This document shows positions 20,985 through 53,710 of a stretch of DNA of 64,000 bases, piece after piece. The position numbers and the translations under genes are program-made. The stretch's first letter is position 1. Every line of letters starts with the position of its first letter. Source of the stretch: Octopus vulgaris (lineage: Eukaryota); assembly GCA_951406725.2 (NCBI GenBank), contig OX597818.1, positions 15,066,001 to 15,130,000 on the forward strand, given 5' to 3'. Below the pieces are notes generated by a model. The model saw only the letters and a program-made list of their open reading frames with translations, was not told where the DNA came from and searched no databases.

Positions 20985-22511
20985 CGTTACGTAAAGGGAA
21001 CTAGTTGCTTCTTTACATTTTTTGGATGCAACTTGGGTGCGAGACATAATTTTCTCTGTTAATTACGTGATCAACAGGAGGAAATTATGCCTAAACATGA
21101 GCGCAACGCATGTGAACATCCGACGTGCTTTGAGTCGGGAGAAGAATTGAGCTGATGCAGACGTGTTGCAAAACAAGGGAGTACACGTGCAGAACTGAGG
21201 TGCATGAGTGCAATAGGGCTTGCTAGGCTGAAATACAGTGTACAGTATTGAATATGCCAGTGATTAATGCAGTAAGGCTGAGGCTGCCAGCCAGTGCTTC
21301 AGCTATTATATGCCTCAGTCGTGCAGGAACAAAAGTGTGGCATGCTGGCGCGTTGCAAGGGACAATCAACTTTCTCTATGTATGCGTGACCGACCTAGGG
21401 TCTTACAGAGATGAGTTGTGTTTACAAGGGCACATTGAGCATGGAAAACAAGCGAGAAAGGCATGTGTGGCGTATGAATGTGACAGAGATAGCATTTGTG
21501 TGTGTATTAACTATGTGTGTTCGTGTGTGCGACAGAAGTACAAACAAGGTGTATGCGGGCAAAACAAAATACAGTGCATAGGAAAAGTCTCTCAGGGTAT
21601 TTCAGACAAGATGGAGTTAATTTACCAGTTCGTAGTAAAGTACATAATAGCAGTTCGTTCTGTAACAGGATGTTCGGATCACAAGTGCAGATGCCGGTTG
21701 GACACATGTCGTGTAGCGGTTGTAGCTTCAATGCTGTGCCAGGTTACATTGGTACAGAAGATCTCGCAGGTAGTGCTGTGCTGTTAACCTCGGTGAAAAT
21801 CATAACAGCGTGAAAGCTAAACCTGAATGAGTGCTATGTACATATTAGTGTTGCTGGAGATGAAGGCGACGAAGATGGAGACGACGTGAAGGTGAAGGAC
21901 GACGATGGTGATGGCGACGGCAGAGAAAGACGACGTTGAGATGAAGGCGTCGGTGGCGTTGCTGGTGTATGTTAGCGTCGTCATTGGCTGGAGCAGGAAC
22001 ATGACTGGCTGGTCTGGTCGTCTGTTGCTGGAACTGGAACATGGTTGAGTAAGCTCTGTGTGGATGAAGACTGCGGCGGATTGATTGGTTCAGACTAGGT
22101 AGAAACTAGATTTTAGCTAAGTGTTCTATGGTCTATGACCAGAACTCGGGAAACTTGGTTGACTGTTCTATGGTCTATGACCAGAACTCGGGAAACTTGG
22201 TTGAGTGTTCTATGGTCTATGATCAGAACTCGGGAAACTTGGTTGAGTGTTCTATGGTCTATGACCAGAACTCGGGAAACTTGGTTGAGTGTTCTATGGT
22301 CTATGACCAGAACTCGGGAAGCTTGGTTGAGTGTTCTATGGTCTATGACCAGAACTCGGGAAACTTGGTTGAGTCCTCATCTTATAAAATGTGGCCCCAG
22401 TAGACCCAAATGAAATCGGGTTATATTAACCAAAATGTGAAAAGGGGTCTAAATGGGGCTGGAAGGGGATTAAAATTTAAAGGAGCGGGTGTTTAGCAAT
22501 TCTCTGTTACA
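20985..22511. mobile_element. Probable solo LTR (~1.5 kb)
   Basis: GC-richer block with (c)GTTAC..GTTACA termini and an internal tandem repeat; no clear TSD. Confidence 0.4.
22121..22374. repeat. 42-bp tandem repeat, 6 copies
   Basis: gtgttctatggtctatgaccagaactcgggaaacttggttga with very few substitutions. Confidence 0.95.
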
Positions 22512-23463: not shown

Positions 23464-25392
23464 TATATCTGTGTGTGTCTGTGCTTGTGTTAATCCCCCA
23501 TCACCGCTTGACAACCTGTGTTGGTGCAACTACGTCCCCGTGACATAGCAGTTCGTCAAAGAAGACCATTAGAATTGTACTAGGCTTCAAAAACATCAAT
23601 TCTGGGGTTGATTCATTCGACCAAAATCCTTCAAGGCGGTGGTCCAGCATGGCCGCAGCCAAATGAGTGAAACAAATAAAAGAGTAAGAAAAATATGCAA
23701 AGCTCTGACTGGGCTTGGAATTACTGGTGCAGCTAAGAGGAGGGCTATGAATTCTATCACTGAAGATACAGGGAAGGCCGTTGGGTGGCTTTGGTTAAAG
23801 GAGGTATACCAGTAGTTTGCTGTTGTTGGGATACAAGCTATTACTTGATCAACCGTGGCTGGTTCATATGGGTGGGTTGGTGGGGTCTAATGCTGAAAGA
23901 CCCAAAACACACTGGTATCCCAGAAACATCACTGCGTACATCCCAGAGCATCTGCGAGATATATCTTAAAGCTATAGATAAGTGTGTGCGCAAGCATGTG
24001 TGTGTGAATGTATATATGCAATGATGCATATATAATTTCATTGCCATTTGTTAGAATTCTTTTTTGGAGGAAGGAGTTCGTATCTAACAAAGAAACAAAA
24101 GCTTTATCAAGGGAACTAAGATAACAACAATGATAATTGTTACATGCTTCAGGAAACACTGGCATATTTTTATTGTTCTATGCAGATTGTATCTAGAAAA
24201 AGGATTAACCGGCCTCTTTCTTTGCTTTAAAATTCCAGCTTCTTTAGATTACCACTTTAACATTTACTAACATAACCAAGTGCAGCAATGATTCTTGGTA
24301 TAAATCTGAATATATAATAATAGGAGGAGAGCCGCAGATTTCGAAGCAGTTGTTTTTTAATATTCCCTTTGCCGCTGACTTTGGAAAAAAATACTCACAT
24401 CTGTGATACCTTACACAAGGACATCTCTGACTGACATATCTCTTTCACTTGATATAATCTTCGGTGGACACTCCATCTTTGTTCACAGTATCTTTATATG
24501 ATGTATTTACATCAATGCGCACGTATTTGTATCACTCACTGTGGAGGACAGGAGAAGTAGACAGACCATTGATGCAAAAATTTGGAGTGTTGGAACTGTT
24601 TATCTATGTTCACTTGTTAATTATGAACGTTTATTTCGGCCGAACTCTATCCCTATACCAACGACATCAAAATAAAGTCCTTAGATATACTTTATTACAT
24701 GCTCACTGAGAAAGCTGAGATTATGGGTGTTGCGTCAATATGAATTATTTGTAAAGTTCGTAAGTTTGGATAAATTCAGGTGCCCCAAAGATGCTAGTAG
24801 GAGAGATATAACAAAAAAATTATATAATCATTGGAAAATAGAACAGGGAAATAAGTTCGAAAAATGAAACCAAAAACAGCGGTGCTCGAAATTTCAATAT
24901 TCCCGTTATATGATGTATATTGATGCTGCTCATGTTTTCAGTATCACGGTGTAAGTATTGGACATATTTTTTAAACATTTTAAAGGCCGTTTAACTCGAG
25001 AATCGAAATGAGAGAAGTAACAGCTTGCAGCTATATTATGGAAAATGTCTTAATTAGCAGAAGTACTTTACTCATGCTTATCTAAGAACAGTTTTAGTAT
25101 CAGAGTATACTTACATGTTGAAATCAGATATAGTCTTAGCGTGGTATAAGACTGAAGAAATATTTCGTAACTACTTAATGATTCCAAAGCTCATGATAAT
25201 AACCATTGTAACTCACTCTATGTCGCCAGTTCTCAAATGGCATGTCATAGATTTTTAAAAAATACTATGTAAACTTATTCTTCAGTGTCTTGTTTTGAGT
25301 GGCATATAATTTAATTTTACATGTCACTCCGTAAGTTGAAAAGTGCATCATGCTCTATTGGGCATTTATCACTAAAAACTAGCATTATTCAG

Positions 25393-26765
25393 AAGGTGGC
25401 GAGCTGGCCGAATCGCTAGCACACCGGGCAATATGCTTATCGACATTTCATACGTTAAGGCGGCAAGCTGGCAGAAACGTTAGCACGCCGGGCGAAATGC
25501 GTAGCCGTGTTTCGTCTGTCATTACGCACTGGAGTCGATATAATCGGCTTAATCTGCCTGTCTGTCCTTGTTTGTCTCCTCTGTGTTTAGCCCCTTGTGG
25601 GTAGTAAAGAAATAAGTATTTTGTCTGCCACTAAGTTCTGAGTTCAAATTCCGCCGAGGTCGACTTTGCCTTTCATCTTTTCGTTACGCACTGGGTTCGA
25701 TGTAATCGACTTAACCCCTTTGTCTGTCCTTGTTTGTCCCCTCTATGTTTAACCCCTTGTGGGCAATAAAGAAATAAAAATCGTTAGCACGCCGCACAAA
25801 ATGCTTAGCTGCACTTCGTCCATCACTACGCTCTGAGGTCCACTTAGTTTTTCATCATATCGGAGGCGATAAGATAGTTGAGCACTGAGGGGGTCGATGT
25901 AATCGATTTGCCCTTCCTGCAGAATTTCAGCTCTGTGCTACTAGTAGACAGGATTATTAAGGTGGCGAGTTGGCAGAAACGTTAGCTCGCCGGGCGAAAT
26001 GCTTAGCGGTATTTCGTCTGCCGTTAAGTTCTGAGTTCAAATTCCGCCGAGGACGACTTTGCCTTTCATCCTTTCGGGGTCGATAAATTAAGTACCAGTT
26101 ACGCACTGGGGTCGATGTAATCGACTTAATACCTATGTCTGTCCTTGTTTGTCCCCTCTATGTTTAACCCCTTGTGGGCAATAAAGAAATATGTATTTCG
26201 TCTGCCGCTACGTTCTGAGTTCAAATTCCGCCGAGGTCGACTTTACCTTTCATCCTTTCGGGGTCGATAAATTAAGTATCAGTTACGCACTGGGGTCGAT
26301 GTAATCGACTTAATACCTATGTCTGTCCTTGTTTGTCCTCTCTGTGTTTAGCCCCTTGTGGGTAGTAAAGAAATAGGTATTTCGTCTGCCGTTACGTTCT
26401 GAGTTCAAATTCCGCCGAAGTCGACTTTGTCTTTCATCCTTTCGGGGTCGATAAATTAAGTACCAGTTACGCACTGGGGTTGATGTAATCGACTTAATCC
26501 GTTTGTCTGTCCTTGTTTTCCCCTCTATGTTTAGCCCTTTGTGGGCAATAAATAAATAAGAATCGTTAGCATGCCGAACAAGATTCTTTACGATATTTCT
26601 TCTGATTTTACGTCCTAAATTCGAATGTTTTTGAGGTCGACTCTACCTTTTATCTTTTCGGATTCATTAAATTAAGTACCAGCTGAGCAGTTGGGGTTGA
26701 TGCAATCGACTAGTCACCCCACAAAATTTCAAACCTTGTACCTGTAATAGAAAGGATTATTATTA
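25393..26765 (+). mobile_element. Nested/tandem array of tRNA-derived SINEs, five units carrying an L1/Tx1-type tail
   Basis: Head aaggyggcgagctggcagaa(a/t)cgttagc; five tails gtctgtccttgtttgtc..gtggg(c/t)a(a/g)taaa(g)aaat ending near 25616, 25777, 26190, 26375 and 26559. Confidence 0.85.
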
Positions 26766-26811
26766 CTAACAGAAATAACGCCCTCCGGACTGTTTTCTTT
26801 TAGTCGTTAAT

Positions 26812-27152
26812 TTCTTCTTCTTCTTCTTCTTCTTCTTCTTCTTCTTCTTCTTCTTCTTCTTCTTCTTCTTCTTCTTCTTCTCCTCCTCCTCCTCCTTCTT
26901 CTTCTTCTTACTTCATGGGGCTTATTACTGGTCCCGAAGGCGTCGCAATGCCTAGAGCCGACCAAGTCCACCAGTGCTCTCCATCGCTGGCGGTCCCGTG
27001 CCACCCCCTCTGCATCCTCCACGGTGAGGTCGAACCTCTGGAGATCTTCTCCAATCACATGCTGCCATTTGGTGCGGAGCCTACCACAAGGCCTCTTCTA
27101 GATTGCAGCTGCTGCGTCGAATGAGAGTAAAGCTCTAGTAGGGTTATCTAGT
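26812..27152 (-). mobile_element. RTE-like LINE 3' end with (GAA)n tail
   Basis: TKWQHVIGEDL..AEGVARDRQRWRALV, followed by ~30 GAA/GGA triplets. Confidence 0.75.
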
Positions 27153-27830
27153 GCAGGGATGGGAACCTTTTGTGCATGACGGTTACCTTACAATTCATCA
27201 TCTCTCATTGAACGAATTATTTTTTCTTTTTTAGTCATTTTATCCCGATAAAGTTAACGATTATAAAGAAGTGCTTCTTTCAAGAAGGACTAATTCAGAT
27301 CGACAAGCATGAACTGGCATGTAATGTAACAGAGCAATTAAAAAATATACTCCAAAAAGAAACTCAGTAGCTTTGGATGAATCGATAGAATTTCTTAAAT
27401 GAATTTCTTAATCTGTGTTGCATCAAGGGAATGCTACGACAGAAGCCAGTTATAAAGTTGCATGTTTGCTTGGAAAAGAGAAAAGCCATTCAGCAATGCA
27501 GAACTCATAAAGGAATGTATTTTAAAAGTGGTGGATTGGAAAAATTGTCTTTGATTTTGTTTTCCATCTTTCAATTTCTGCAACGCTATTTTTCGAGACT
27601 CACCCTCTAATCTGGCATATTTATTGTCTTTATGAAGAGCGTAATGTTGCTGTGCATTGAATTTCTTAACCGTTACAATTGCGGAATCACAAAACAAGCA
27701 AGACATTTTGCGCCTACTATTTACTAAAAAATATTGCAATGCCCATTCTTCATTGAAGAACTTGTTTTCTTCTTTCAAAGTTTGTTTTAATTTTTTTGAC
27801 ATAATTATGGGTTAAAAAGAAATGTATTTA
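27153..27830. mobile_element. Scrambled hAT (Charlie/SPIN, GTF2IRD2-like) transposon remnant
   Basis: TIR-like CAGGGATGGGAACC; minus strand FNEEW..CLFC..KKFNAQQHY..H; plus strand EASYKVA..KPFSNAELIKEC and LSRRT..SVALDES. Confidence 0.8.
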
Positions 27831-27942
27831 TTCCTAACAACCATAAAAAAATAAAAGGCTGTGGTGTTTTGTCTGTCCTTGTGCTGTCCCCTTTGTGTAA
27901 GAGCCTGAGTGCCTTGTATAAAGAATTAGTGATAGTTCGACC

Positions 27943-29428
27943 GTGGGTCTGTTAATTCTCGTTTTTGCTGAATTGTGTGTTAAATACTTGTAATTCCGTA
28001 GACGTAAGTGGTGTTATTGTATATTGTTGGAGGTCTCCCCGTGTGGGTGAACCTGGATTTGTTAAATTTGTTGAATTTGAATTTTTGTCGCTGTTTTGCC
28101 TGTTTTTCTATTTGTTTCATCCCTATTTGTGGGTGAAGTGGAAGAGAGATGGAACAGGAACCAGTTGGAAGTTATGCATAGGCGATGACAGAAGGATTAA
28201 ACACCAACACCTTAGAAGTGCGAGATATCAAAATAGACCCCCAAAATGGAAAGAGGGAAGTAATTTGATAGAAAAGGAAGGGGCCAGTTTGAGGCTGACC
28301 TCACCGGAGGAATTGATGAATAGTGTGGCGAAGAAAACAGTTGTTTATAGGATATTGTCTACCTGTTTGAAAAAGATAGAGATTGCCTCAGTAGAGGCAA
28401 TAGAGGAATGTCTTGAAGACATAAAAGGACTGACCACGTTTTGCACGCGAGGAAGGAAGCATGGCACAGCGGAGATTAGGTTTTCCACCGAAGAAAACGC
28501 CATAAACCACTCCACTGTGCCGATAAGGACACAAGAATGGGTACTTCTGCCGACTTACTGTGGCAAACGCGTCGCCAGAGTATGAATCGGCAGAATACCT
28601 CCTGAGATTAAGAAAGCATAGCTGGTAGCAGCAGTCAGCCACCAGAGAACCAGAAAAGGATGAAAGAGATAAAAGAGGAGGTGGCAAGGAGCTGGTTAGA
28701 TGCACAAGCAACTTCATCAACAGTAGGATATAGCGTGGAAGCAGAAGCAGCATTGCAACGCGTAGTGGAAACATAATTGTTGAGGATTTTGTCAGTACAC
28801 CAACGGAGGAACCAAGAGGTACGACTCGCCCGGACAGCCCAGATCCGCCGCTGAAAAATGAAATTGTAAAAGAGAAGAAAAAGTGGCATATGGTCACATA
28901 TGTCAAAAGCACGGTAATCGAACGGAAGATCACAAAATTTAAATCGGTCATAAGAATTAAGTTGTCACCAGAGCAATATCCAGACCATATCAAAGGAATA
29001 GTAATTGATAAAGAGAAACATAGCAGACTGAAGGAACTGTTTGGAAATGATATGGACCCTTTAGGGGTTGAGACAGAATTTGACAATTTACCATCAGTAG
29101 TGGAGTGTGCGGATTTGAAACCCTTGATTAACTACAACAGAGGGTTTTTTTTTTAAAGGAAAAAAGAAAATAGACTTTAAAAAAGAAAACGATGCGAAAT
29201 GGAAAAAGGAGAGAAAAAGAAAAACTTTTTTAAAATATTATGATTTAACTGTTAAATGGTACTGCTTGAGAGTGGGGCTCAATGCAACCATTTCATCATT
29301 ACTGTTTCTATCATTTTTATATACATCTTTCATTTTACATTCGTTTTATGTTTTTTATCCCCACTGTGGTGTTTTGTCTGTCCTTCAGCTGTCCTCCTTA
29401 TGTCATGGCCGTAGTGTCAAATAAATAA
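27943..29428 (+). mobile_element. ORF1-only (HAL1-like) L1/Tx1 derivative, degraded
   Basis: VVYRILS..IEECL..RGRKHGTAEIRFSTEE..VLLPTYCGKRVARV is homologous to ORF1 at 36860-37110; no ORF2; ends in gtctgtcctt..gtcc..aataaa. Confidence 0.75.
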
Positions 29429-29429
29429 A

Positions 29430-30940
29430 AGGTGTTAGATCGAATTGAGTTCGCAGTGAAGTCGAAAGGTGTCAGTTGGTTAGTTCGTTTGGAATATTGA
29501 TTGTTTGTTCGTGAAGGGATTGTTGGATCGTTACGTTGTTATTACGGCTGCATCGTTATCTTGTTTACTATTACAACACTGGTATAGTATATCTAAACCA
29601 TCCGACACAATATCATGGCGGTACCACGGCATTGGAGACGGAGAATACAACATCAGGCGATGAGGGTTTCGAAGCTCACATAGAGTATTTAACAATTTGT
29701 TCGTGATACAACTTGTTAAATGATGGAAGACCTACTAGATTGTATAATACAGTTGCGGAAGCAAGTAGTACAGCAATAATACAACAACAACAATTATTGG
29801 AACTATACGCAAAGAAGCCCGAAAATGCGTAAGTCCGTTTTAGCCAGACGGCGTATCGTACTCCATAACAGAATTCAATTGTAATCTAGAGGAGAGTATA
29901 ACTTTTAGAGCGTACGACAAAAGGTACGAGGAGAGTTTTAAGGAAGATTGCAAAACATGGTCGGACGAAAAAAAAATAAGGCTGTCATTACGTCAATTAA
30001 CTCCGTATGAGCATGAACGATACTATAATTTCATATTGCCCAAAATTTCTAGTGAGTTTTGTTTTCAGGAAACAATCAAATTATTGTCTGACATGTTCGG
30101 TGATAAAACGTCTCTGTTCTACATTCGAACTGAATGTTGTAATTTAGCTAAAAAAGAGGATGATGACTTTATTACGTATGCAGAACAGTCAACGGAATGT
30201 GTGAAAATTTTAGACTTAAAGAACTTACTCCTGAGATATTCAGTGCCTCATTTTTATACAAGGCCTTACAGCAAATGAAGACACAGAAATATGGGCAAGA
30301 ATTCTTTCAAAACTTGAATAAACGCACCGAGATTTAACCCTGCAGACTGTTGCAGAAGAGTTTCAAAGGATGGTAAACCTGAAAGACGACGTAAGAACAA
30401 TTCAAGAAAAGTATTTCGCAAAAATACAGCTATGTCCACCGAGAAAGTATAACTAAAGAAGATTACTTCGTCCTAATCCATGTTACGGGTGTGGAGACCT
30501 ACATTTCAGAAAAGATCATATTTTTCTAGATCAAAAAATGTTACAGTTGTCAAGTTTTGGACACAAGAGTTCACACTGCAGAACAAAATTACGAAGGTCA
30601 AATGCATAAAAATTCTAAAGTTCTCTCAATAGAAAGTAAAATTTGTATACGTAAAAGTAAACGGAGTAAATATCAAATTACAACTGGATACTCGTAGCGA
30701 CATTTCAATCATTAACACTGACACCTGGAAGAAAATAGGGAAACCTATGTTAAAAAAGACAGCGAAAACTGCACATGGGGAGACGGGTGACAAACTACAG
30801 TTTGTAGGCGAAATGTGAAATGATGTCATATTTCGAGGAGAAACTTGCAAGGAGAAAGTTTTCGTCGTCAAGAGCGCAACTAATCTGTTTGGTACCGACT
30901 GGTTGGAGTTATTCGACTAATGGGATCTCCCAATAAGCCG
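29430..30940 (+). mobile_element. Gypsy LTR retrotransposon 5' part (LTR remnant, PBS, gag, protease)
   Basis: ..tacaaCA followed by degenerate PBS tcaggcgatgagg; gag RYEE.F.ED..EHERYYNFILPK; CYGCG and CYSC knuckles; protease LQLDTRSDISII; NLFGTDW. Confidence 0.85.
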
Positions 30941-31565
30941 ATATGAAGGTGCAAGAAGCCGACAACCAAGAATCTGACCAGGAAGACAATAGCCAACAAG
31001 TCGAAAATCAAGAAGCCGAAGTTCTCCTACATCCTATTATTGTCAGCCCATCGACTGGTGATGATGTGAAGTAAATGGTAGGGCAGGATGCACTCACAAT
31101 TTGGAAAAATATAAAAAAAGCGATAAACTAAAACAAAAGGAGTGTAAAACACATAGAGTGGGCCCCTACATCACGAGATCACAATGGATTTCACAGTCCT
31201 GCATAAGTAACGTGTTCCTTGGTATTATGAAATATAGAAAGTATAATGCCAAGCATTCCGGGGAAGAAAAATTAGGACCAGATTTTAAATTATTTATATG
31301 ACAGGTTTTTGTTGATAACATCAATGCACTATAACATCACAAAATAGAAGACGCTGGATACTTTTTGTCCCCTCCAAAGTAGAAAATAGTCACAAAACCC
31401 ACAGGAGGTGCAGAAGGTACAAGCGAATCTCCAAATATTTTTGTGGGGTGCATAATCAAAATCTGCACCCGTTTACTTTTCTGAGATTTAGAAAACAGTA
31501 CGTTAAAAGTGATCTGTAAAAAGTAGTTTGAAGTTAGGTTTCTTCTCCAAGAACAAAATACAAAA

Positions 31566-31625
<60 letters not shown>

Positions 31626-32019
31626 AGCAATAAGGCCTTGTTTGTAAAACGTTTTGGACCTGGGTTTGCACCACTCAACAAATTTCGTTCCCAAGACCCG
31701 TAAAGTTGTGATGAATCACTGATCTATCCTAGCTGATGGGTTTTCACTCATGTGTGTATTAGTTACCCTGTTTGATTTTGTTTGTTTCTTTTTCAAAATT
31801 ATATTCCTAATTTTATATAAACGACTATTTATTTTGTACAGCTACTTTATGTAATTTTGAAATATTTTACGCAAATTGATATATCATTTAACGTTTGTTT
31901 TTTCCCCCCTTTATTGTTGATTTGAGTGAAAAGAGTCCTTTATTGTTTCGTTTCAACACAACCTTTGAATGAGTTGAAGTTTTTTTGTATCAGTGAATGG
32001 GCCTTGTGGCAGTAATAAA

Positions 32020-32900
32020 GAATTATAACGAGAGTTGGAAAACTCGTTGGAGAGTCAAGCAAAACGTACTGCGGTATTTAGCAATAACCCTTTATGTTCT
32101 AATTTCGAATCATGATGAAGTCAATTTTGGTTTCCGACCCTCAAAAATCGATAAAATAAAGAACCAATCAAGTACTGAGAACAATATAATCGACTGTTTT
32201 TTCTGAATTTGTAATATCGATTTCAAATTTTGGCTCAAGAACAGCAACTTTGATGGAGGGGCTAAGTAGATTGCATCGCTCCCGGAGTTCAATTGCTACT
32301 TATTTTATCAACCCCGAAAGAATGAAAGGCAAAGTCGACCTCGGCGGCATTTGAACTCAGAACGTAGAGACGCACGAAATGCCACGAAGCATTTTGCCCT
32401 GCGTGCTAACGATTTTGCCAGCTCGGCGCCTTTCTAACTTTGTAACATTAGAAATAGCAAGGGCGGTGGATTGGCAGAACCATTAGAACAACTACTTTGT
32501 GATATTTGTTCAGGATCTTTATATTCTGATTTTAAATCTCGTTGCAGTCATGTTTGCCTTTCATCCTTTCGGGGTCAATAAAATAAAATAGTTGTCAAGT
32601 ACTAGGATAGGTATAATTAACTTCCCCCCTCTCCTCAAACTTATTGGTCTTGTGCTTAAATCAGAAATCTTTTCTTGGGTGGTGAAATGCTGAACTGTTG
32701 AAGAGTCGTGTTTCTTAAGGTTCTGAATTCAAAACATACTAAGGTCAACTTTGCTTTTCAACTTTTCTGGGTCGTTAAAATAAAATCCCTGTCGAATACT
32801 GAGATCGATGATATCAAGTAACTCATCAAAACTTTTGGTCTTGTGCCTAGATTAGAAACAAATACAGAAGGTAATCAGATGGCAGAATCATTAGAGAGCC
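32020..32900. mobile_element. Cluster of old tRNA-derived SINEs (same body as the 25393 array, ordinary tails)
   Basis: Repeated gtc(g/a)actttgcctttcatcctttcggggtcgataaa in both orientations; another copy at 33690-33880. Confidence 0.7.
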
Positions 32901-33966
32901 GAATAAATGCTTTTCGGACTCTTTTCACATATTAGCATTGTTTTTTAGATTAGATAGTGTCCAAATGTGTTGAAATTTGATATGGGCCATTTATACATAT
33001 GGTCAACCTAAATCTTTAATATTATGCAAAATTATTTTAATTCTTTTAATTTCTAGTTTGCTTTAATGCTAAATTCAGAAATTTTAAACTTTAGTTCATA
33101 TTTTAATCCGAAATTCATTTGATGTTTAAATTTTAAAACTCCTGTAATGAGGTTAAATTCAACAACTCAACTTATCACATTTCAGACTCACATTTCTCAA
33201 TCTATCATTATTTTATATCCTAGCTAATCAGAGCTTTCTGAACCTCTACATCACAATATAATCACTACTGATATTTCATTCATCCAATACAATTCCTTAT
33301 TATGCTTGATAACACCAATGACCAAATATTAAAGACTTCATTTATATAAATGCGCATGCGTGCGTTGTGTGCGTGCGTGTGTGTGAGTGTGCGTGCGTAT
33401 ACACTCACAAACATACATTCTGTGGGTGACATTTTTAACCGAGACTTTGCAATCGTATCTGATTCTTCAAGTTCTTCAATTTTGTGTATATACATATATT
33501 TACTTGAATACTGACATTTATCAATGGGTTCCCCCATTGTGTTGATATGCCATTTTCTATCATCAATAAACCTGTCGGCATTTTTGCCGACACGGGTATG
33601 CTAGTTATAATATAATATATTAATGTATTCTCCGCCACAGAATTCTGTGGATATTTGTACAACGAAAAGACAATAGTATATAAAACTTAATCCTTTCTGA
33701 AATTTGGTGGGAGGGAATATGTCAATTACATCGACCTCATTGCTAGATTGGCACCTATTTTATCGACCCCGAAAGGATGAAAGGTAAAGTCGACCTCGGT
33801 GACACTTGAACTCAGAGCGAACGAAATGCCGCCAAGCAGTTTGTCCGACGCTCTGACCATTCTACCAGCTCGTTGTCTTAAATGATGTATAATATAATAA
33901 TGTACATCTCACTACAGAATTCTTTAGATATTTGTACAACGAGAAAACGAAATATATAAAACAAAT

Positions 33967-33997
<31 letters not shown>

Positions 33998-34849
33998 AAT
34001 GAAATCACACACTTACCGTATCTTTTCAATGCCATGTTATAATAAAATCTTTAAGAAAAAAATCTATATTTTGAGATAGATACAGTTGAAAATCAGGGAT
34101 TGTCGTCTGAATATTCTCACACCAAATTCAGTGTTAAAATGTCTTGTATTGGAGATATAATCGGTGTAAAAAATTTAATCTGCTTCATGATTTGTCTTAA
34201 GTAATCCAGCAGTAGGGAAGTTTTTTTTTTCTCAGAAGTTCCGACTAATGCATACTTTCATATATACATGTATACATATACGCTTATATTTGTATGTGTA
34301 CGTGTTCTTCATAATGAGTATGTGCGCATGTACATTATGCTACATACGCCAGATGTTTAGAGAGAGGCATGAGATCGACGGTGAGGAATAAGGTTACGGC
34401 AAAACTACTGATTGTCATAATTCTTTAAATTTATATTAATCTTGATAGAAAATCAATATATAGAAATGTAACACATAAAACTGACTGGGATAAACTGAAA
34501 TGTAATATAGAAAGAAGAGTCAATGAGAGTATTTTGATATCGGGGATCAGAAACAAACGAACCTTGCCTTGAATTTTACCTTTTATTTATTTTTTTCTCA
34601 TTTAATATATTTGTGGTCGATAGAATAGCACAGGCCAACATCTTTTTTTTTTTCCTTTTCTGTTGTCAAAAAATGTGAACCCGAACTAATTTTTTGAGAC
34701 ACAGAATCCGAAAATGACATCCATTTATAACTATCGTATCAAGACTTAGTGATGCAGGATCTACAGAATTTCATTGTATTTTGTCACTAAAACAGCTTAT
34801 GAATAACAAAGCATAACATAAATACATACAGACATAGGCATGATATGCA

Positions 34850-35230
34850 AGCATCATCATATCATATACCCAGGCCTAGTCAGCATTTTTTAGGAGGGGA
34901 TAGCCGCAGCAAGACATACACCAGGCATTCCATTCATTTCCCACCTCAAATTCCTGGTTATGACTATAAACTACATCCAATAGTGGGACCCTGGGGCCAT
35001 GGTTTCTGGGTTTGAGGAGTGTGGAACCACCTTTTAGTCAGTATTGATCCCAGGTCTACTCTGGCCCGGAGTGGTAGTACCTGTAAGGGTCCCAGCTGTG
35101 GGTTAACTAGCAAACCCCACTGCGACTGGAGTGAGGATCGGTAGAATGCAGTCACCGTATTCCATGCGTGGCGTAAGAGGCGACTAAAAAGGGTAGGAGC
35201 GAGGAGACTTGGAATCCTCTCATCCTGGTA
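34850..35230 (+). mobile_element. Short retroposon nested in the Chapaev-like element
   Basis: GC-richer insert with a SINE-like body and gcgtggcgtaagaggcgactaa, a motif I associate with RTE 5' regions. Confidence 0.4.
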
Positions 35231-35696
35231 AATCCATATTCCTAAAAATGCTGCAAGAAAATATACAAACATAGAAATTGCTTTTTCCTAGTTCCAGCAA
35301 TAGTTCGCCATCATATGCAATTACCATCTGCCTTCATACCCTTTGTTCAATTGATTTTATATCCTGATAGAAATGTTTTTCCTGGTTGTCACTTGTGTCA
35401 CTAAGATGTTCAAGGAATTTATCAAGGTCACTGTGAAGACTGCAGTTTTATACTCATATTTGCTTTCAACTTTTGCAGTTCTCCAGCATGCTGTCGACTA
35501 TTTCGACAGAGTTAGCTGCTTTCTTGTTGCTCAGAAAGTCATTTACAAATGAATTATATGCTGCTGCTTCAATGCAATTCATTGAATTTACTTCCCATCT
35601 TCCATCAATTTTCTTATTTGAGACCCATCAAACATTCCAGCTTTTATCTTTTTACTACTCAGACTGGGAGATGTGCAGCAAATATAGTGAAAGCAT

Positions 35697-36110
35697 TTTA
35701 TAAAAATAAAGCCAACAACGGCTTTTCAAAGTTTACAGAAAATGTTCAACAGAAGATATTACTTCCACTTAGGGTGGAAGCCTATAATAAATTTTCCTCT
35801 AATAGAGGATAACAGTTCCAATCCCATCTCTGTTAGGGGCGGGTCGCAAAAACAAAGTCTAAAACGACTTAAAACAGTTCGAATTTTTACACAAAATTCC
35901 AAAAAGGCAATGCCACAATGGCCACAGAAATATATCAAACAGTTCCTATTTCCCGGTATACCGGGGTGTAGTAAAAATAAAGTTCAAGAAATACAACAAC
36001 GATAACAATCCCAAACAAAAACGGAATCCTATAATAGCAAAACGCTTACCAGCATAAAAAACACAACCACGTCGTGTGACCGGAAACAAGCTTCCTACCA
36101 CACAGCTGCA
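35697..36110 (-). mobile_element. Inverted SINE head plus 5' UTR of L1/Tx1 copy 1
   Basis: Reverse complement reads gctgtgtggtaggaagcttgtttccgg, then tcacacgacgtggttgtgtttttt.., collinear with the 5' UTR of copy 2 (41694-42060). Confidence 0.8.
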
Positions 36111-36678
36111 CTTGAGCCTGCTTCGATTTTTTTTCTTTTAGCATTCGTCCGTAGTCAACATGTAATCTATATCATTCATGCATAAAATATTCGCAATGTA
36201 TATCCGCATTTCCTGATTTTCCATTACTTTTGATATTTATAATAGCAAATTTATTGCTAATAATAGTACAGTAGATTGTCTTAAATCCACTGACTACACA
36301 ATTCAACAAGTAGGCTGTTGTCAGGGCGTGTCGTAACTGATTTGAAGATTTTTCGATATTCTGAACACCAAAAAGTAATTCATTTTTTTACCATCACATC
36401 TAGATTTCAAGATATCCCCCACCCAAATTTCACAATCTTCCTCATTTTCAGAAAAAATCAATGTTTACTTGGGAAATTTAGTTTATTTCGATTTATACGT
36501 TATTCTATTAAGAACCAGGGAAAAACGATGGATAATCAAAGAATGGTCATAGCGTACATTAGTTCCAAGGTTTTTTATGTGGTTGAAAAGCCTTTATTTA
36601 AACCGAGGAAAATCATTCTGCCACTACTCTTTATCAAATTAGACATCATGAAGCAATTTGTTAAAGCTCTGGATAAAG

Positions 36679-39600
36679 ATGCTGGCAGAGATGCCAACAT
36701 TAACACTGTTAAAACATTTTCGGCAGTTTCCGCGGTGGCAACTGAAATTATTGATATGCCAGTCGAAAAACTGAAGGAATACTTCGAAAGAATGAAGGAG
36801 GACTGTGGTATTATGATATCACCCACCTCCAATGCAATAGAGACACAAAGGAAAACTGTTATATTTAAATCCTATTGTCCCGAGAGCAAGCTGTTCAAAC
36901 ATTTCGAAAGGACATAATAGAAAAATGCTTGATCCCTATGTGGAAGGACATTGCATATATCTCAAGGGGAAAGGCATATGCGACAATCGAAGTCAGGTTC
37001 ACAACCGAAAAGAAGGCCCACGGGTACTCTGTGAGCCCTCTGAAAACAAAGGAGGTGGTGCTTCTACCAACCTACATGGGAGGCGCACTTCCCGTGTAAA
37101 GGTGACAGAAGTGCCGCCAGAAATAGACCCACGAGAAGTGATGGCTGCCCTGTTGTTCAACAGGACAGAAAAATAAAATTCTTGCAGATAACATGCACTG
37201 CTCTCCAAATCTAGCTGAGACAGAGCATTTCAGTCATAATTAAGGGGGCACCGGAAGACATAGAAAGGCTTCCAGAGGGGTGCTCGTGGGGGAGAATGTA
37301 GCCCCTTCAAATACAAGTGGAGGGAAAGAAACCCACCTCTTATGAGTGTGGAAAGAAGGGCCACATTTGTTTCGATTGCGAAGAAAGGAAAAAGAGAGAA
37401 GAAAAAAGGAAAAGTGGCAATCTTGCACAGATACGAGGCCCTACATCTGTGAAAAACAACTCCAAGACCACACAGACACCAGTCCCGACAAAGAGAAACA
37501 CTCCCACCCCCTTCTGTTGCGGTGCCGTCCCCCAAACAAACCAACGAAAATACCCAAACCCTGCACACACAAGCCCATACAAAAATAAAATTGCCCACCC
37601 CCTTGAAACCTGAGGCATCTGTTGTTGGTGAAAAGAATACAACTCCCTCAGACAACACTATGGAGGTGGCTGAGTGAGAGTTCTTGACAGTTCGGAAACG
37701 AACACATGCACCTTCCCCATCCATATCCCCCACAGGAAAACGCAGAACGTTACCACAAATTACCAAACAAAGACCCCCGCTCCATCGCCCCAGAAAAAAG
37801 AAGAGACGATACCATTTTGGTAAAATATAATACCAAAGATCTTTACATGGACGAGGTGATTACGAAACACCACACAGCAAAGTTGTACCCTCAACATAGG
37901 AGTATGAACGAGAGGTGTACCTGGATAGGGGAAACCCTATTCAAGCAACTGAAGGATAGGCATTCAAAGGCCATATGGAGGATTTGGGACCTACTTAGTT
38001 ACTTGAAGAAGGAGGAGAAGGAAGGGGCTGACTCACGTGTGGTAAGGTCAGCCCCAGCATCACCAGTTAAGGGTAAGTAGAACCCTTGCTTTTTCCCCAT
38101 TGTTTTAATGGCTACACTTAACCTTGGATGTCTGAATGTGCGTGGTTTGAGCTCGAAGTGGAAGCAAGCCTGTTTCTTCGACGACCTCACATCATACGAT
38201 ATGCATGTGATGGTTGCTGCAAAGACCAAGCTGGACAGTCTACAAACCTTCTCACCCCTCCTGAATGGCTACGAGAAAATCATGTCACCTAGCCAGCCCG
38301 GAGGTCGAGGGGGTATAGTTGTACTGATCCGAAAAGGCTTGGCTCTGCAGACAAGTACAGTCTATGTGGACCATAAAGGTGGGCTGGTCGTCCTTCATGT
38401 GACATACAGCAGTAAGGCCTTCAGGTTGATCGGAATCTACACACCCTGTGCTAGAGGATTACAAACTGATTTTTATCGGCGCCTTGAGATCTTTCTCGTG
38501 ACGTCGTTGACGCGCGCATCGATAGCGTTGGCTCGACTAGTAGGAAAGCGAACTCACGCCTCGTAGGCTTTCAGCTAGCAGATCGTTACAGGCTTGACCA
38601 TCCGAACGTCCCAGAGTGAACCTGGATTAATGGCGACGGAAGGCTCAAGTCTTAGACAGGATAATCATAAGAGCTAGAGATAAGGATAGCTTTAGTTGTC
38701 CACACTTTTGTTCAGGTGACCTACACTGACCATAGAATGGTTAAGTGTATGCCGAACATAGATAGGAAATTTGAGAGAGGATCCGGCTACTGGAAGCTGA
38801 ACAAGTCTATTTTGACTTGCGAGGCATGCCGTAACCGGATTAAGGAACTAGTACAGAGGGCATTTACCGGCGCTGTGGTTAATAACCGGTGGTGGTTCGC
38901 CCTCAAGAGAGTCATTCGTTTCGAGTCTGTTACATTTAGCTACCAGCTAAGACTAGATAAGGCAAGAACAGAAGGACAGCTAGTTAAGGACTTAGAGGAG
39001 GCGTTGAGATTGGGCTCTGCATCCCACATTCTGGCAGCGAGAACGGCCTTGGACCGTCACCGCAAAGCCAAACATGGGGGGTGCAGAGTTCGGGCTAAAG
39101 TACGCGCATTGGGCCGTGAGGGAATTAATGTTGCTGGATAGACTCATACGGTAGAAATCCATCGTGGCAATGCTGCCACAATAAGGTCTCTTGTTGAGGA
39201 CAATGGGAGTTCGGTCAAGGGACAGGACGAGACGAAATGTGTGAGGCACTTTACAAGCACTTCGCCGAGTTGTTCGGGAGGGGCGGGACGCTGGATTATG
39301 GTGGAAGCCCTTAGGGACTTCCTGTATGGCGACTTGTGTTTATCGGCACGAGAGCATGAGTGCTGTGAAGGTCCAATCACAGCCGAGAAGGTGATCGAGG
39401 TACTAGGCGAATGCCCAAGGGACAAGTCGCCGGATCTCGATGGTCTACCCTATGAATTTTATAGAAGCATGACAGCCTTGTTCGGACACCTGCTGGCCAG
39501 CGTCTACGCCAACTGTCAGCAGAATAGGAGAATTTCCAAGTCTGCGAGCTGAGGGGTGGTGACATTGATCAGGAAGGACCCGAGCAAGGAGGACGAAATA

Positions 39601-41680
39601 GGAAATTTCAGGCCCATAACTCTGTTGAACACAAAGTTAAAGATTTTGGCCAAGGTGCTAGCGAAAGGGTTGGCACGAGACGTGGACAGACTTGTGAGGG
39701 AAGCGCAAAGGCGCTATCCCGGGCAGGTCGATCCACGACAATTTCCACCTTATACTCTACACTTTAGAGAGGGTGAGGAAACTTTCTGGCGCAGGGAAGG
39801 GCACTGGTACATTTAGACCAGTCTAATGCATTTGATAAGGTCGACCATCGGTACTTGGCGGCAGTCCTCACCAAGGCTGGCCTGGGTCAGACCTTCCGCG
39901 GTTGGATTGCTGCGTTGAACAGCGATATCGAGTCTGTCATGAAAGTGAATGATTTCTTTGCGAAGCTATTCAGGAATGAGCGTTCAGTGCGTCAAGGATG
40001 TCCCCTACCTCCGCTTTTGTATGTACTGGCTCCTGAGCTATTGCTGCGGAAGTTGGAGGCACTAGGGGGCGCTCCACATGATCTATGGTATGGAAGAGGA
40101 GCTATGGCGTATGTGGATGACATCTCTATCATCGTGGTGGATGAGAGCTAGCTTCCAGTGGTGGAAAAGGCCATCAAAAGTTACCAGGCGGTGGCAGGAG
40201 CAAACTTAGCTCCTGGAGGAGCAAGCCGATGGCGTCCAATAACGTCGTGGGGCGTTGGACGGTAGGTTCTGTTAAGCTGCTCGGAGTCTGGATTGGTCCA
40301 GACCCCCCAAATAGAGAAAATTGGAGTGAGGTGGCCAGCAAGGTGACTACTCTAACCCATATCTAGTCTGGGCGGGCATTATCCTTGCTAGGGAGGGTGG
40401 AGGTGGTGCAGATGTTTATAGCATCAGTAATCACCTACCGTCTGACCGTGGTGCCTTACCCCGATTTGTTGCTGAACAAGTTGGAGAGAATCCTTTTCCA
40501 CTTTTTGTGGAAGGGAGGAAAGTCACTTGTGAAGTGCTCTGTCTGCTGCCAGAAGCCGCTAAAGGGTGGGTTAGGGATGCTTTGGCTGAAGATGCGAAAA
40601 TTCGCGTTACGGTTGAGGCACCTCTGGCTTTACCTGGTTGGAGAGCAGGTCTGGTCACCGCACGTTTGGTTCTATCTTCCGCAGTTAACGTCCTAAACGG
40701 ACATTGGTACATGGATCAAGCAGACACCTAGGCTGGGGTACTGACAATTGGAGTGCCGTTAGGCACTTCAGTTGCTCTCTCAGGCGGGCAATGCCGGCAG
40801 CAGGAGTTCTACTTCGGATTTTTATAGTGGGTTAGTGGAGATTATATTCGAAGACGCATTGTGGGAGACCCTGGTCTATGATGAAAATCAGTTAATGAAC
40901 CTGTTGAGGAGAGCTTTCGGGCCGGGATATCTGCATAATTACCAGAAATCCCTGGCTTGGCAGTGCTTCCGTGCGGCGTTACCTGTTCGCAATTAACTGT
41001 CAAGGCACGGAAGTGCCGTATCGCCGACATGTCCATGGTGCGGAGAGGACAGGGAAGCCGTCTTGCACGCATTTGTGAAGTGTCCGGAATTATCGGGACT
41101 GATAGCTTTCGCAGAACAACTGTTGTCATCGATGGAAAGAGTACAGCTATTAGCTAAGTCTATCATCGAGATTGCGCCGCCTCCTTCCATTAACAGGGAG
41201 AAGAAAGCTTGCTTTTCTGCGTAGTAGCCATACTGAAAGAAACAGAATGGAAGATGCGTATGAAAGGAATAGTGACGGGTACCTAAATGGCCAAGGGTTG
41301 GTCAGCTTTTTTAGTTACCACTTCAGCAGTAAAATCAGGCTGGGGTAGAGGTATCTGTCACAAGAAAGATTCGATAAAAGATGGAAGCTTGTGGCAAGAA
41401 AGCCGGGAGTGAGTGGCACCAGGTAAGTGGAGCCCCGGAAGAAAAGCAAAGGTTCCACACTCGTGGTCGGGTGCCTTTCCTTCAGGAGATGCATTACACG
41501 TGGCAATGTGAAATCATCGGATTTTAAATTTTTATTGTAATCGCAATTTTTAATCGCATTTCACCGTTCATTTAAAACAGAACTTTTAATCGACAAAGCT
41601 TCTTCACTCTGTTATGTTTGTCTGTCCTCGTTTGTCCCCTCTGTGTAATGCCTACATGGCAAATTTTTATGAAATAAAGA
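36679..41680 (+). mobile_element. L1/Tx1-clade LINE copy 1 (ORF1 ~36679-38080, ORF2 ~38108-41425), decayed
   Basis: ORF1 knuckle (S)YECGKKGHICFDC; APE MATLNLGCLNVRGL..TDH..GYWKLN; RT KSPDLDGLP, FRPITLLN, SVRQGCPL, YVDD; C-terminal CPWCGEDREAVLHAFVKC. Confidence 0.92.
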
Positions 41681-41693
41681 AGCTTGCTTCCCA

Positions 41694-44447
41694 TTGTACG
41701 AGGTGGTTCGTGTTTTTTGTACTGGTAGGATATTTTACTACTATTTCGTTGGATTTCTGTTTACTTGTACTGTTGGATTGTTACCATCGTTATTGTTGGA
41801 CTCTGTTTGAACTACTAATTTACGGTTTTACCGGGGAATAAAAATTGTTAATTAATATTTGTTTGGCTATTGTGGCAATATTTTTTACGGACATTTAAAA
41901 AAAAATTGTTGAACTGTGTTTAGTCTTTGCAGTCTAATTTTTGTGTCCCTCCCCTGAACGGGGGTGGGATTTGAACTGTTGTCCTCTGTGAGGGAAAAAA
42001 ATTTATAGGTTTCCCATTTTTTGGTGGAAAACCATTTAATTTAATTTTTGCGATTTGTTGCTTTATGGAGTTAATTTCGACCGAATAATGTCGGTCGAAA
42101 TAATTCATGAGAAATGTACTCTCGTAGAGAGTAATGCAGAAAGTGTTGAACCGATAAAAATGTTTTCGTTGGTTGACGCGGGGGCAACCGAAATTATTGA
42201 TGTCCCTGTGGATAGATTAAACGAATTTTTTGGAAGAATGAAGAAAGAGACGGTGATGTAAAAATATCACCCTCCTCCAATGTTAAAGAAACTGAACGAA
42301 AGACTGTAGTATTTAAATCTTTCTGTCCACAGAACAGAAGATTTAAGCACTTTGAAAAAGAAAAAATTGAGAAGTACCTGTCACCAATATGGAAAGACGT
42401 AGACTATATTGCAAGGGGACAAGCATGTGGAACCATTGAGGTCTGTTTTGCAACTGAAGAGGGGCCCGCGGGTACTCCGTGTGCCCCCTGAAGACAAAGC
42501 GTGGTGCTTCTGCCGACATACATGGGAAGACGCACTTCACGTGTGAGGGTGACAGAAGTACCACCGGAGATCGATCCGAAGGAGGTTATGGACGCCCTGT
42601 TGTTTAACAGGGAGGACAGAATAAAATTCCTCCAAATTACATGCTCTTCCCCTCCCCACCCCCAGAATTGGCTCGGGCAGAGCATTTCAGAAATTGTTCA
42701 GGGGTCGCAGGAGAATATTCAAATGCTTCCTGAGGCAGTGCTCGTGGGCGAGAATTTGGCCCTTAGAATTCAGGTGGAGAGTAGGAAGCCCACCTGTTAC
42801 GAATGTGGGGAAAAGGGCCACATTCGTATAGACTGTGAAGAGAGAGAAAAAAGAAAAGACAAAATGGCGCAGATACCAGGCCTTACACAAACCCCAAAAT
42901 TTGTCCCAAGCCTACACACACACATCAGTCCCCACACAAGTAAAAGTTCCCACTCCCCCAACTGCGGTGCCGGTCCCTAAACAAAACACCTCAAAAACCC
43001 AAACTTTGCACACACGAACCCCAACAAAAACAAAAATACCCGCCCCCTTGAATTTATTGGCACCAAAAGGAAAAAGTGCAACTCCCCCAGACGACACCAT
43101 GGAGGTAGCAGAGGAGGATTATACTGTTGTGCGAAAGAGAATGCATGCACCATCCACATCCATATCCCCTACAAAAAGTAATAAATGTTTAGCACCACAG
43201 ACAGGAAAAAAGACCCCACCCAGTTGTCCCAGAAAAAAAGATAAACCGGTGCTAATCGAGTTTGATACGCGAAATAAATATATAAATGACACTGGAAACG
43301 CACCACACGACAATATTATGCTATGCACAAGGACCTTAAGGAGAGATGTGCCAGGACAGGGGAAACTCTATACAGGCAATATGGAGAATTTTTGATCTGC
43401 CAAATTATCTAAAGAAGGAGGGGGGATGGGCTGACACACGTGTGGTGAGGTCAGCCCCAACGTCACCCGTAAAGAGTAAGTAATGACTGCACTTAACCTT
43501 GGTTGTTTGAATGTGCGTGGTCTGAATTTGAAGTGGAAGCAAGCTTTCTCGACGACCTCAGATCACACGATATACATGTAATGGTTGCTACAGAGACCAA
43601 ACTGGACAGTCTACAAACCTTTTCTGGTCTACGATGAAAATCAGTTAATCAACCTGTTCAGGAGAACATTCGGGTCGGGGTATCTGGATAATTACCAGAA
43701 ATCCCTGGCTTGGCAGAGCTTCCGTGCGGCGCTACCGGTTCGTGACAAGCTATCAAAGCAAGGAAGTGCCGTCTCGCCAACATTCCCGTGATGTGGGCAA
43801 GATAGGGAAATCCTCTTGCACGCATTCGTGGAGTGACCAGAATTATCGGGACTGATAGCTTTTGTCGAACAACTGTTGTCAGTGATGGGAAGAGTACATA
43901 TATCAGCTGAGTCTATTCTTGAGATTGTGCCACCTCCTTCTCTTAGCAGGGGAAGGAAGGCTTATTTTTTCTGCGTAGTAGCCATACTGAAAGAAACAGT
44001 ATGGAAGATGCGTGTGAAAGGCATAGTGACAGGTACCTTTGTCTCTGGTCAGGGGTTGGTCAACATCTTTAGTTACCACTTCAGTAGTCAGATCAGGCTG
44101 GAGTAGAGGTGTCTATCACGAGATATATTTGTGAAAAGATGGACGCCTGTGGTAAGCAAGTTGGGTGCGATTGGCACCAGGTAAGTGCATTCAGGATAAA
44201 AAAGTAAAGGTTCTAACCAGGTGGTCAGATGCCTTTCCTTTATGGAATCCACTGCAAATTGCAATGAACGTTAAATTTTTAAATTGTATATATTGTATCA
44301 TAAAGTGTATCATTATTCGTTAGATCATTTATCATTCGAGACTAATCTTTTAATCAATATAGTAGCTTCCTCACCCTTTTATGTTGGTCTGTCCTTGTTT
44401 GTCCCCTCTTTGTAACGACTTTATGGCAAATATTTATGAAATAAAGG
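41694..44447 (+). mobile_element. L1/Tx1-clade LINE copy 2, full 5' UTR and ORF1, ~2.6-kb deletion in ORF2
   Basis: ORF1 with CYECGEKGHIRIDC; ORF2 start MTALNLGCLNVRGL fused at ~43620 to sequence matching ~40870 of copy 1; TSD agcttgcttccca at 41681-41693 and 44448-44460. Confidence 0.92.
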
Positions 44448-44712
44448 AGCTTGCTTCCCAACCACATGGTTCCGGGTTCAGTCCCACTACATAGCATCTT
44501 TCACAAGTAGCTTCTACTATAACTTCGGGCCGACTAAAGCCTTATGAGTGAAGTTAGTAGACAGAAACTGAAAGAAGCCCTTCGTATATATATATTTATG
44601 TGTGTGTGTGTGTGTGTATACGTGCGTGCACGTATGTCTTTGTGACTGAGTTTGCTCTCCACACTGCTTGACAACCGATGCTGGTGTATTTACGTCCCAG
44701 TAACTTAGCGTT
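44448..44712 (+). mobile_element. Downstream part of the tRNA-derived SINE interrupted by the two LINEs
   Basis: agcttgcttcccaaccacatggttccgggttcagtcccact..gaaagaagccc. Confidence 0.85.
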
Positions 44713-44900
44713 GAAAATCAATGTAAAGTGTGAAATTGGTTAAATGTTTAAATATGACTTTAAAATATTTAAACTATTCTCAGTGCATTTTCAACTTCTA
44801 TTTTTCCTATATTTCTAACATACAAACACACACGCACACATATATGTATGTATATGTATGTGTATATATATATATATATATATACATATATATATAATAG

Positions 44901-45645
44901 AGTGTACATTTAAACATAAGGAATCCACTCGTGGGATTCAACACGCTACAAAGAACAGCTAGGTTCTATAACCACTAAATTAGGGATAAAATTCGACAGG
45001 AACGAAATGAAAAAATAAAAACATTTTACCATCTAGTTTCCTGGACCAATTGGTTTCTGATTTTAGTTTAGTAAATAAATAATATTTACTCGCTAGGGGA
45101 AATCTTTCTCAACAGGTACACCTTAGATTAAATATATAGACACGAGGCGATCAACTATGTGCCTCTTGTTTATACATCCTAATTTCCGAAAGGATTTTAA
45201 AAGTTGGCATTTTTTTATTGCCGGCGAAGGGCTGTGACTGTAGATTTTGAAAAAATTAGGCTGTATAAACAAGAGGCACATAGTTGATCGCCTCGTGTCT
45301 ATATATTTAATCTAAGGTGTACTTGTTGAGAAAGATTTCCCCTAGCGAGTAAATATTATTTATTTACTAAACTAAAATCAGAAACCAATTGGTCCAGGAA
45401 ACTAGATGGTAAAATGTTTTTATTTTTTCATTTCGTTCCTGTCGTATTTCATCCCTAATTTTGTGGTTTTAGAACCTAGTTGTTCTTTCTAGCGTGTTGA
45501 TTCCCACGAGTGGATTCCTTATGTGTTTAAATGTACACTGTATTTTATGAGTAATACATAGGCTTTGGACTAAATTTTTACACGTTGGGCCACTGGAAGT
45601 GAAAATTTCTATTAATTTCCATTTCCTTTTGATATGATTAAGTAT
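44901..45645. repeat. Fold-back element: ~285-bp inverted arms (44901-45186 / 45254-45539) plus ~100-bp tail, in (TA)n
   Basis: Direct reverse-complement match of the arms. Confidence 0.9.
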
Positions 45646-47946: not shown

Positions 47947-47951
<5 letters not shown>

Positions 47952-52945: not shown

Positions 52946-52970
52946 TCGAACCTGAGACAAAAGATAAATA

Positions 52971-53634: not shown

Positions 53635-53638
53635 TTCT

Positions 53639-53710
<72 letters not shown>

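Follow-up and report, generated by a model that had tools for sequence, protein, structure and literature searches.

The 64,000-nt stretch of Octopus vulgaris DNA analysed here (assembly GCA_951406725.2, contig OX597818.1, forward-strand positions 15,066,001 to 15,130,000; hereafter the window) holds three clusters of retroelements whose 3′ ends carry the short motif GTCTGTCCT: arrays of a short interspersed nuclear element (SINE) at 25.4-26.8 kb, elements with only the first open reading frame (ORF1) at 27.9-29.4 kb, and two tandem long interspersed nuclear elements (LINEs), A and B, at 36.7-44.4 kb (Table 1). Exact matches to the motif lie at 25560, 25722, 26137, 26321, 26505, 27871, 29376, 41620, and 44387, all on the plus strand and in agreement with a preliminary description of this DNA; allowing one mismatch gives 25 matches, compared to 8.9 expected. 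That description was also right that all nine mark element 3′ ends without poly(A), each adjoining another repeat, but the AATAAA-like end follows at 40-60 nt rather than within ~35 nt, and the nine are not independent, since five belong to one SINE array, two to half-LINE ends, and two to LINE ends. The duplicated target expected at each end is degenerate around the window half-LINE (3 mismatches in 13 nt, judged by eye).

Table 1. Retroelement features of the window, numbered from its first letter (LTR, long terminal repeat; UTR, untranslated region; APE, apurinic/apyrimidinic endonuclease; RT, reverse transcriptase)
Position	Strand	Feature	Details
~25381-25459		second, older SINE head	precedes unit at 25460..25776
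25460..25776	+	SINE head and two degenerate tail-bearing units	motifs 25560, 25722
from 25777		sister-SINE remainder	follows unit at 25460..25776
25959..26559	+	one SINE head, then three 184-bp core-plus-tail units	motifs 26137, 26321, 26505; families D17, D19
26560..26770	+	sister-SINE remainder, same head and core, different tail	putative host of the array
27859..27925	+	3′ tail fragment of the ORF1-only family	motif 27871; tandem with the full copy that follows
27930..29430	+	ORF1-only half-LINE H	tail motif 29376
27956-28582		broken ORF piece of H	homologous to ORF1 of an autonomous family (35% over 111 aa, E 3e-22)
29431..30930	+	target of H	3′ part of LTR-like sequence to 29615, then broken Ty3/Gypsy-like pieces
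within 29431..30930	+	broken gag-like (DUF7083) and aspartyl protease pieces	Ty3/Gypsy-like
35776..36121	-	host SINE head (36082-36121), then LINE 5′ UTR	inverted relative to A
36711..41676	+	LINE A: broken ORF1 (zinc knuckle), ORF2 (APE endonuclease, RT, zf-RVT)	tail motif 41620; hairpin 41650-41662
41677..41692	+	16-bp SINE target-site copy	between tandem A and B
41693..44443	+	LINE B, tandem copy minus most of ORF2	motif 44387; junction near 43624; matches A 36711-38253 and 40871-41693
44444..44611	+	second target-site copy and 3′ remainder of host SINE	
62275-62455	-	intact copy of host SINE	

Across the genome (2.8 Gb), an extended form of the motif occurs 117,227 times (control 88), divided almost equally between the plus (58,568) and minus (58,659) strands. 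The plus-strand rule put forward earlier therefore holds for the nine window copies but is local, and strand bias was rejected as a general feature. Among 81 distinct consecutive matches on contig C1 (two edge matches were dropped), 80 (~99%) have the SINE core upstream, so the genomic count measures one SINE, which exceeds 100,000 copies. In a set of 90 LINE ends drawn from 150 matches to the zf-RVT domain, only 4 have the exact 9-mer within their final 95 nt; the 9-mer was accordingly discarded as the common element of the group, contrary to the original proposal.

The group is instead unified by a short predicted hairpin followed by AATAAA and then the end. A recognisable tail could be aligned for 84 of the 90 LINE ends, consisting of a TGTCC-like word, a stem of 3-6 bp with a loop of 4-6 nt, AATAAA, and a few further bases, and by eye none of the 84 is followed by poly(A). 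The stems vary among families in a compensatory pattern, a description made by inspection. In the A/B lineage the hairpin positions are paired in 90.5% of cases, with a covariation of 0.287 against 0.143 for shuffles (0/500) and at most 0.077 when the pairing is slid, a signal beyond both controls. The reverse transcriptase likely recognises this shared end; recognition may be ‘stringent’, and the repeats that are hit may serve as a ‘safe harbour’, as suggested before. It seems decidedly unlikely that common ancestry and a polyadenylation signal alone explain the tail, with LINEs that use relaxed recognition: although the hairpin is weak and related families are expected to share their ends, the end is kept across families with 53-60% ORF2 identity and different stems, as well as by the SINE and the half-LINE, which share nothing else with the LINEs downstream of ORF1.

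By their predicted proteins, the elements belong to the L1 clade in the broad sense that includes Tx1. All three intact ORF2s examined contain PF03372, PF00078, and PF13966, and their best match among solved structures is L1 ORF2p (E 5.5e-67, compared to about 1e-19 for R2), which together give this placement; the presence of two ORFs and a target-site duplication is also an L1-clade feature. PF00098, the CCHC zinc knuckle, was found in three of three intact ORF1s and at 42492-42977 of the window. Such a knuckle in ORF1 is a feature of Tx1 elements, although not a diagnostic one. The ORF2 tree comprised 20 proteins from this genome and no named Tx1 elements, and no Tx1 name appeared among the top 120 protein homologues, the nearest named one coming from Argonauta (64%). 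The twenty long ORF2s form about ten families at 53-90% identity, and the radiation of L1-clade LINEs with related, poly(A)-less tails proposed earlier is thereby borne out. An annotation of O. vulgaris lists 80 L1-Tx1 families, 13 of them recently active, with targets unmentioned in the partial text (PMC13282606), and another source, likewise in part, gives L1-Tx1 only as abundant (PMC8967140). We found no cephalopod description of the targets reported below in the open literature, where no search was aimed at TATA-spaced insertion; some families may already be named in Repbase.

That several of these families are site-specific for other repeats, namely a SINE head, LTRs, and microsatellites, was likewise confirmed. 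More than 20% of flanks, the level used by Kojima for target preference among Tx1 elements, fall in one repeat for the A/B type (29/30 and, for a young relative, 24/24), the L288 type (one site in an unnamed repeat, 20/30 loci), the L291 type (one site in another repeat, 11/12 loci), and H (12/55). The target is (CT)n for L285, L297, L455, and L465, although not for two diverged relatives, and (ATT)n in four of four cases, while D286, D290, and D295 have varied flanks. Several further arrangements were seen. An L288-related LINE (L362:1741-1904) ends directly before position +1 of a U1 snRNA gene, and nine copies related to it mostly run into ATAC-like starts; a U2 gene lies 400 bp from L358 on the opposite strand. 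One LINE clade (L335-L353, L357, L272, L274, L280, L300, and L430-L444) inserts just upstream of short hairpin motifs, which resemble Penelope or hammerhead repeats; they lack an Rfam ribozyme match, and a hammerhead/Penelope identity of the P288, P274, and P300 targets was dropped for want of that support. On contig C2 (73.046-73.069 Mb), near-identical intact LINEs stand in tandem with 18-22 bp site copies between them (L335, L338, L340, L346, and L347).

Strict targeting is seen in the family of LINEs A and B. Among the best 30 of 41 matches listed for the 3′ end of A, window copy included, 29 run into the identical site in a SINE head and the thirtieth runs into the body of that SINE. Exact copies of the junction 20-mer number 992 in the genome (control 0), behind at least three tail types. 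At the 5′ ends of 30 A/B loci, read by eye, a SINE head is found in 15 and a previous LINE tail plus site in 8, showing that these are true insertions and tandems; the target duplication is ~16 bp. A young relative with intact ORF2s of 1,133-1,150 aa ends at the SINE-head site in all 24 copies. Its bodies are 97-99.6% identical to one copy, whereas the downstream SINE host bodies have a pairwise identity of 90.6%, so the hosts are independent, and hitchhiking of a LINE together with a SINE remainder was rejected because the host bodies are more diverged. In the window, the segment at 35776..36121 likely represents the 5′ end of A itself, reversed in a subsequent inversion; an apparent inversion of ~0.9 kb (35776-36700) turns the 5′ UTR of A, the host head, and flanking sequence.

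Copies of the A/B family also carry the head of the target SINE at their own 5′ end. These carried heads show a mismatch of 0.018 (n=19), compared to 0.083 in intact hosts (n=51, p=7e-4), and where the two site copies differ, the family base is on the 5′ copy (five of five positions, three loci). Doubled heads occur at L413 and L420. We infer that the A/B RNA starts with the head of the host and that annealing of its cDNA to the target forms the 5′ junction, a mechanism proposed earlier for R1A of the D. melanogaster type (PMC2718515). As a separate observation, LINE 5′ UTRs open with degenerate earlier target-site copies at L117, L118, L281:1245-1300, L290, and L505, as though every generation adds its own flank. 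The young family is moreover found preferentially in host variants that agree with its own copy of the site (17/23 versus 13/51 at one column, and 23/23 versus 33/51 at another column). This preference would be expected if specificity were partly borne by RNA, in that an AATAAA placed too near the end for normal cleavage would let transcripts run 10-30 nt into the flank, anneal to matching targets, prime copying, and hide the poly(A), which is absent by eye from all 84 recognisable ends. We nevertheless consider this rather doubtful: protein read-out or 5′ annealing would account for the variant preference just as well, and the flanks of D286 copies are many and unrelated.

The tail-bearing SINE, to which ~99% of sampled motif matches belong, is less specific. 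Dispersed copies have duplications of 10-23 bp in 29 of 46 cases (mean 0.36 in a mismatched control), which start with a weak (G/T/A)(G/A)TAT preference (GGTAT-like). Among the 77 matches on contig C1 with a readable end, 35 (~45%) adjoin one of two self-sites in the same or sister SINEs and 42 run into sequence outside both. The 5′ half of its tail matches the A/B and X271 families, and its hairpin half matches D286, D295, and R291; a pattern search for a LINE with the full SINE tail gave 727 matches, and the 30 examined comprised 27 SINE-type, two A/B-type, and one H-like. The SINE likely borrows the enzymes of the L1-clade LINEs, whose tails are similar to its own. Its claimed membership of the group thus stands as regards the similar tail, but its insertion is weakly specific and the window LINE is at most a candidate partner. 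The host SINE may resemble the CORE-SINEs OR1/OR2 and the tail-bearing SINE a MetaSINE; no Rfam tRNA match was found in 25300-45000.

The arrays of this SINE are mostly single-headed with exact 184-bp units, as at 26009-26560, and several whole dimers carry one outer duplication, both of which could reflect read-through of dimeric master copies or local duplication rather than insertion into an existing SINE. Among 128 heads surveyed, however, 19 arrays finish in a sister SINE that differs in its tail and diagnostic bases, and 16 finish in the same tail. At least three tail types, each with diagnostic bases of its own, close the last units, an outcome that duplication cannot produce, and double-head cases with a duplicated self-site exist (L202 and L194). 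As the main origin of the arrays, read-through or local duplication therefore appears unlikely, and insertion into existing SINEs is preferred.

The ORF of half-LINE H is an ORF1 homologue, and H-ORF homology lies upstream at 50 of 55 distinct loci, for most of which ~1.5 kb was examined. An ORF2 is near one of the 55, where it belongs to a neighbouring LINE. H thus resembles HAL1 in having ORF1 directly upstream of the tail, no ORF2, and multiple copies. In many copies of the A/B family, internal deletions at varied points join ORF1 or early ORF2 to the 3′ end (L008, L009, L011, L012, L106, and window 43624); such copies are possibly repeated births of half-LINEs. The downstream flanks of H sort into ten clusters that cover 35 loci, with 20 singletons besides; Gypsy-like gag or protease sequence follows at five loci (window included) and another H at ten. 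The largest cluster (12/55) is the 3′ half of a 154-bp LTR-like unit; of 13 refetched loci, 5 had the 5′ half of this unit on the upstream side. H breaks this LTR at TCAGT, ~33 bp after a TATA-like box. The claim of an LTR target for the half-LINE hence survives in that LTR-like repeats are often hit, but there is no single target family and a positional rule takes its place. A search for duplications in 3-kb H loci was mostly unsuccessful. At L302:829-1534, two 150-bp LTR-like copies lie ~400 bp apart, resembling a terminal-repeat retrotransposon in miniature, and belong to the LTR family that H hits most commonly. In the window, the H target has a start resembling a primer-binding site at position 29616.

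The positional rule applies to two families: the autonomous family D286 and the half-LINE H mostly insert ~30 bp after a TATA-like sequence in unrelated repeats. D-type loci show alternation of A and T at -30 to -25 before the duplication. With the hypothesis fixed before held-out loci were fetched and a matrix trained on 12 loci, 7 of 13 distinct held-out loci with a callable, non-tandem duplication (38 examined) scored above the 90th percentile of random positions, with a peak at -30 and a mean of 2.5 versus 0.5 (p=0.001; shuffle p=0.0035). D286 alone contributed 5/6 in training and 6/10 held out. Many of its copies keep the box despite 5′ truncation, so it is no part of the element; of four D286 flanks searched, three belong to multicopy repeats unrelated to one another, and the fourth matched nothing but itself. 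The three other clean, non-tandem H junctions (L380, L383, and L384) also have a TATA-like box near -30. Selection of TATA by the SINE was not supported (4/30).

TATA-spaced sites would correspond to promoters or transcription starts. It is conceivable, if tentative, that a tether to the Pol II pre-initiation complex (TBP/TFIID) or to the melted start site directs D286 and H to real transcription starts, much as TFIIIB does for TRE5-A and Ty3 at Pol III genes, the former being a published precedent for tethering (PMC5911963, in part). The fixed -30 spacing in unrelated repeats, 5′-truncated copies included, the splitting of the L302/L304 LTR at the initiator-like TCAGT, and the copy of another family that adjoins +1 of a U1 snRNA gene all point this way. 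However, direct read-out of an AT-rich upstream motif would give the same spacing, and upstream motifs have been proposed for RTE (PMC6007223, in part); in addition, the samples are small. By a broader and similarly speculative extension, a non-LTR lineage might dock on the Pol II pre-initiation complex, integrate at TATA-promoter starts, mostly those of transposons, and steal promoters, its sister families having hardened into one-site parasites of the SINE that donates its head.

Taken as a whole, we find it probable that the elements are an L1-clade radiation with its dependants, which share hairpin/AATAAA ends without poly(A), make 10-23 bp duplications, and differ from family to family in insertion site. 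Target-primed reverse transcription would start at the tail end, and a downstream second nick would leave an overhang that anneals to target-like cDNA, resulting in seamless junctions with a single head. With this nick ~16 bp downstream, the overhang would match cDNA inside the SINE, as expected for the single-head arrays of exact 184-bp units that are seen; read-through of dimers may contribute to the SINE arrays. Site choice would come mainly from sequence read-out by the element's protein, and insertion at another element's start site would supply a promoter to the new copy. Several points weigh against this picture. In stability the hairpin does not surpass shuffles (median z -0.17, n=43), and the covariation test spans a single lineage of relatives. 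Neither a LINE with the entire SINE tail, nor a sampled family with the SINE's flank preference, nor an autonomous partner with the H tail was found. The 3′ hosts of the young A/B family are less diverged than average (0.054 versus 0.094, p=0.04), which weakens the carried-head contrast. The TATA sample is small (13 of 38 held-out loci callable, two calls marginal), D295 contributed one of three held-out loci, and A/B-type hosts show no TATA selection (11/24 versus 27/69 intact).

Elsewhere in the window, long inverted repeats resembling miniature inverted-repeat transposable elements lie at 44914-45524, 47947-48440, and 52964-53641 (arms of 272, 243, and 173 bp), and a 42-bp tandem array and two diverged duplications of 340-570 bp occupy 22071-22406, 50747-52052, and 55032-59886.

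Much of this behaviour has precedents, which we compare from partial texts of the sources cited. Crocodilian Tx1 families prefer other transposons, such as Mariner-N4 or, for Tx1-8_Crp and Tx1-4_AMi, LTR retrotransposons, and others prefer microsatellites (Kojima 2015, PMC4494074). Tx1-Mar and SINEU resemble the octopus system in tandem insertion and SINE mobilisation, with small-RNA heads in some families (PMC4494074); transposon-on-transposon insertion, LTR and microsatellite targeting, and SINE mobilisation are therefore already known. There, however, the SINE and LINE are linked by a shared target, with no LINE carrying the SINEU-1 tail, whereas in the octopus a similar tail is shared, and for Tx1-Mar the passages mention neither a SINE target, nor a head derived from the target, nor a TATA-spaced rule (PMC4494074). 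Xenopus Tx1L/Tx1D and the fish elements Keno (U2), Dewa (tRNA spacer), Mutsu (5S), and Kibi/Koshi (microsatellites) are, as in the octopus, sequence-specific APE-type LINEs with multicopy targets (PMC4494074, PMC3706591, PMC6719617), but each has one named target, whereas the octopus sister families span strict, positional, and loose targeting. HAL1 and other ORF1-only LINEs join ORF1 to a LINE 3′ end without ORF2 (PMC5786205), as H does, although octopus H is mostly found in LTR-like repeats at a TATA-spaced site. Stringent-type L1s are described in maize, sorghum, and Chlamydomonas (Ohshima 2013, PMC3747384), in comparison with which the octopus case is animal, poly(A)-less, and tied to target choice. 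R1A of the Drosophila melanogaster type makes transcripts whose upstream target sequence anneals to give precise 5′ junctions, but R1 targets rDNA (PMC2718515), unlike the octopus LINEs. Dictyostelium TRE5-A, an L1-clade element placed by contact between ORF1 and TFIIIB, targets Pol III genes in the opposite orientation (PMC5911963).

Three features set the octopus apart from these systems: a similar poly(A)-less hairpin tail in an animal L1-clade group and in a major SINE, a link that is rare by the partial text of PMC3747384; a SINE head borne by the very LINE that invades this SINE; and the TATA-spaced rule, to which TRE5-A at Pol III genes comes closest (PMC5911963, in part). A single genome here holds intact endonuclease/RT proteins that are closely related (53-99% identical) yet differ in target, and so offers material on how LINE specificity evolves. 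The nested and tandem repeats that confuse octopus repeat annotation are also explained. For tail-dependent recognition by L1-clade elements, the group would be a rare example from an animal, together with a SINE of more than 100,000 copies. If true, the TATA-spaced rule would give non-LTR elements a new mode of targeting, by which one transposon could silence or exploit another.

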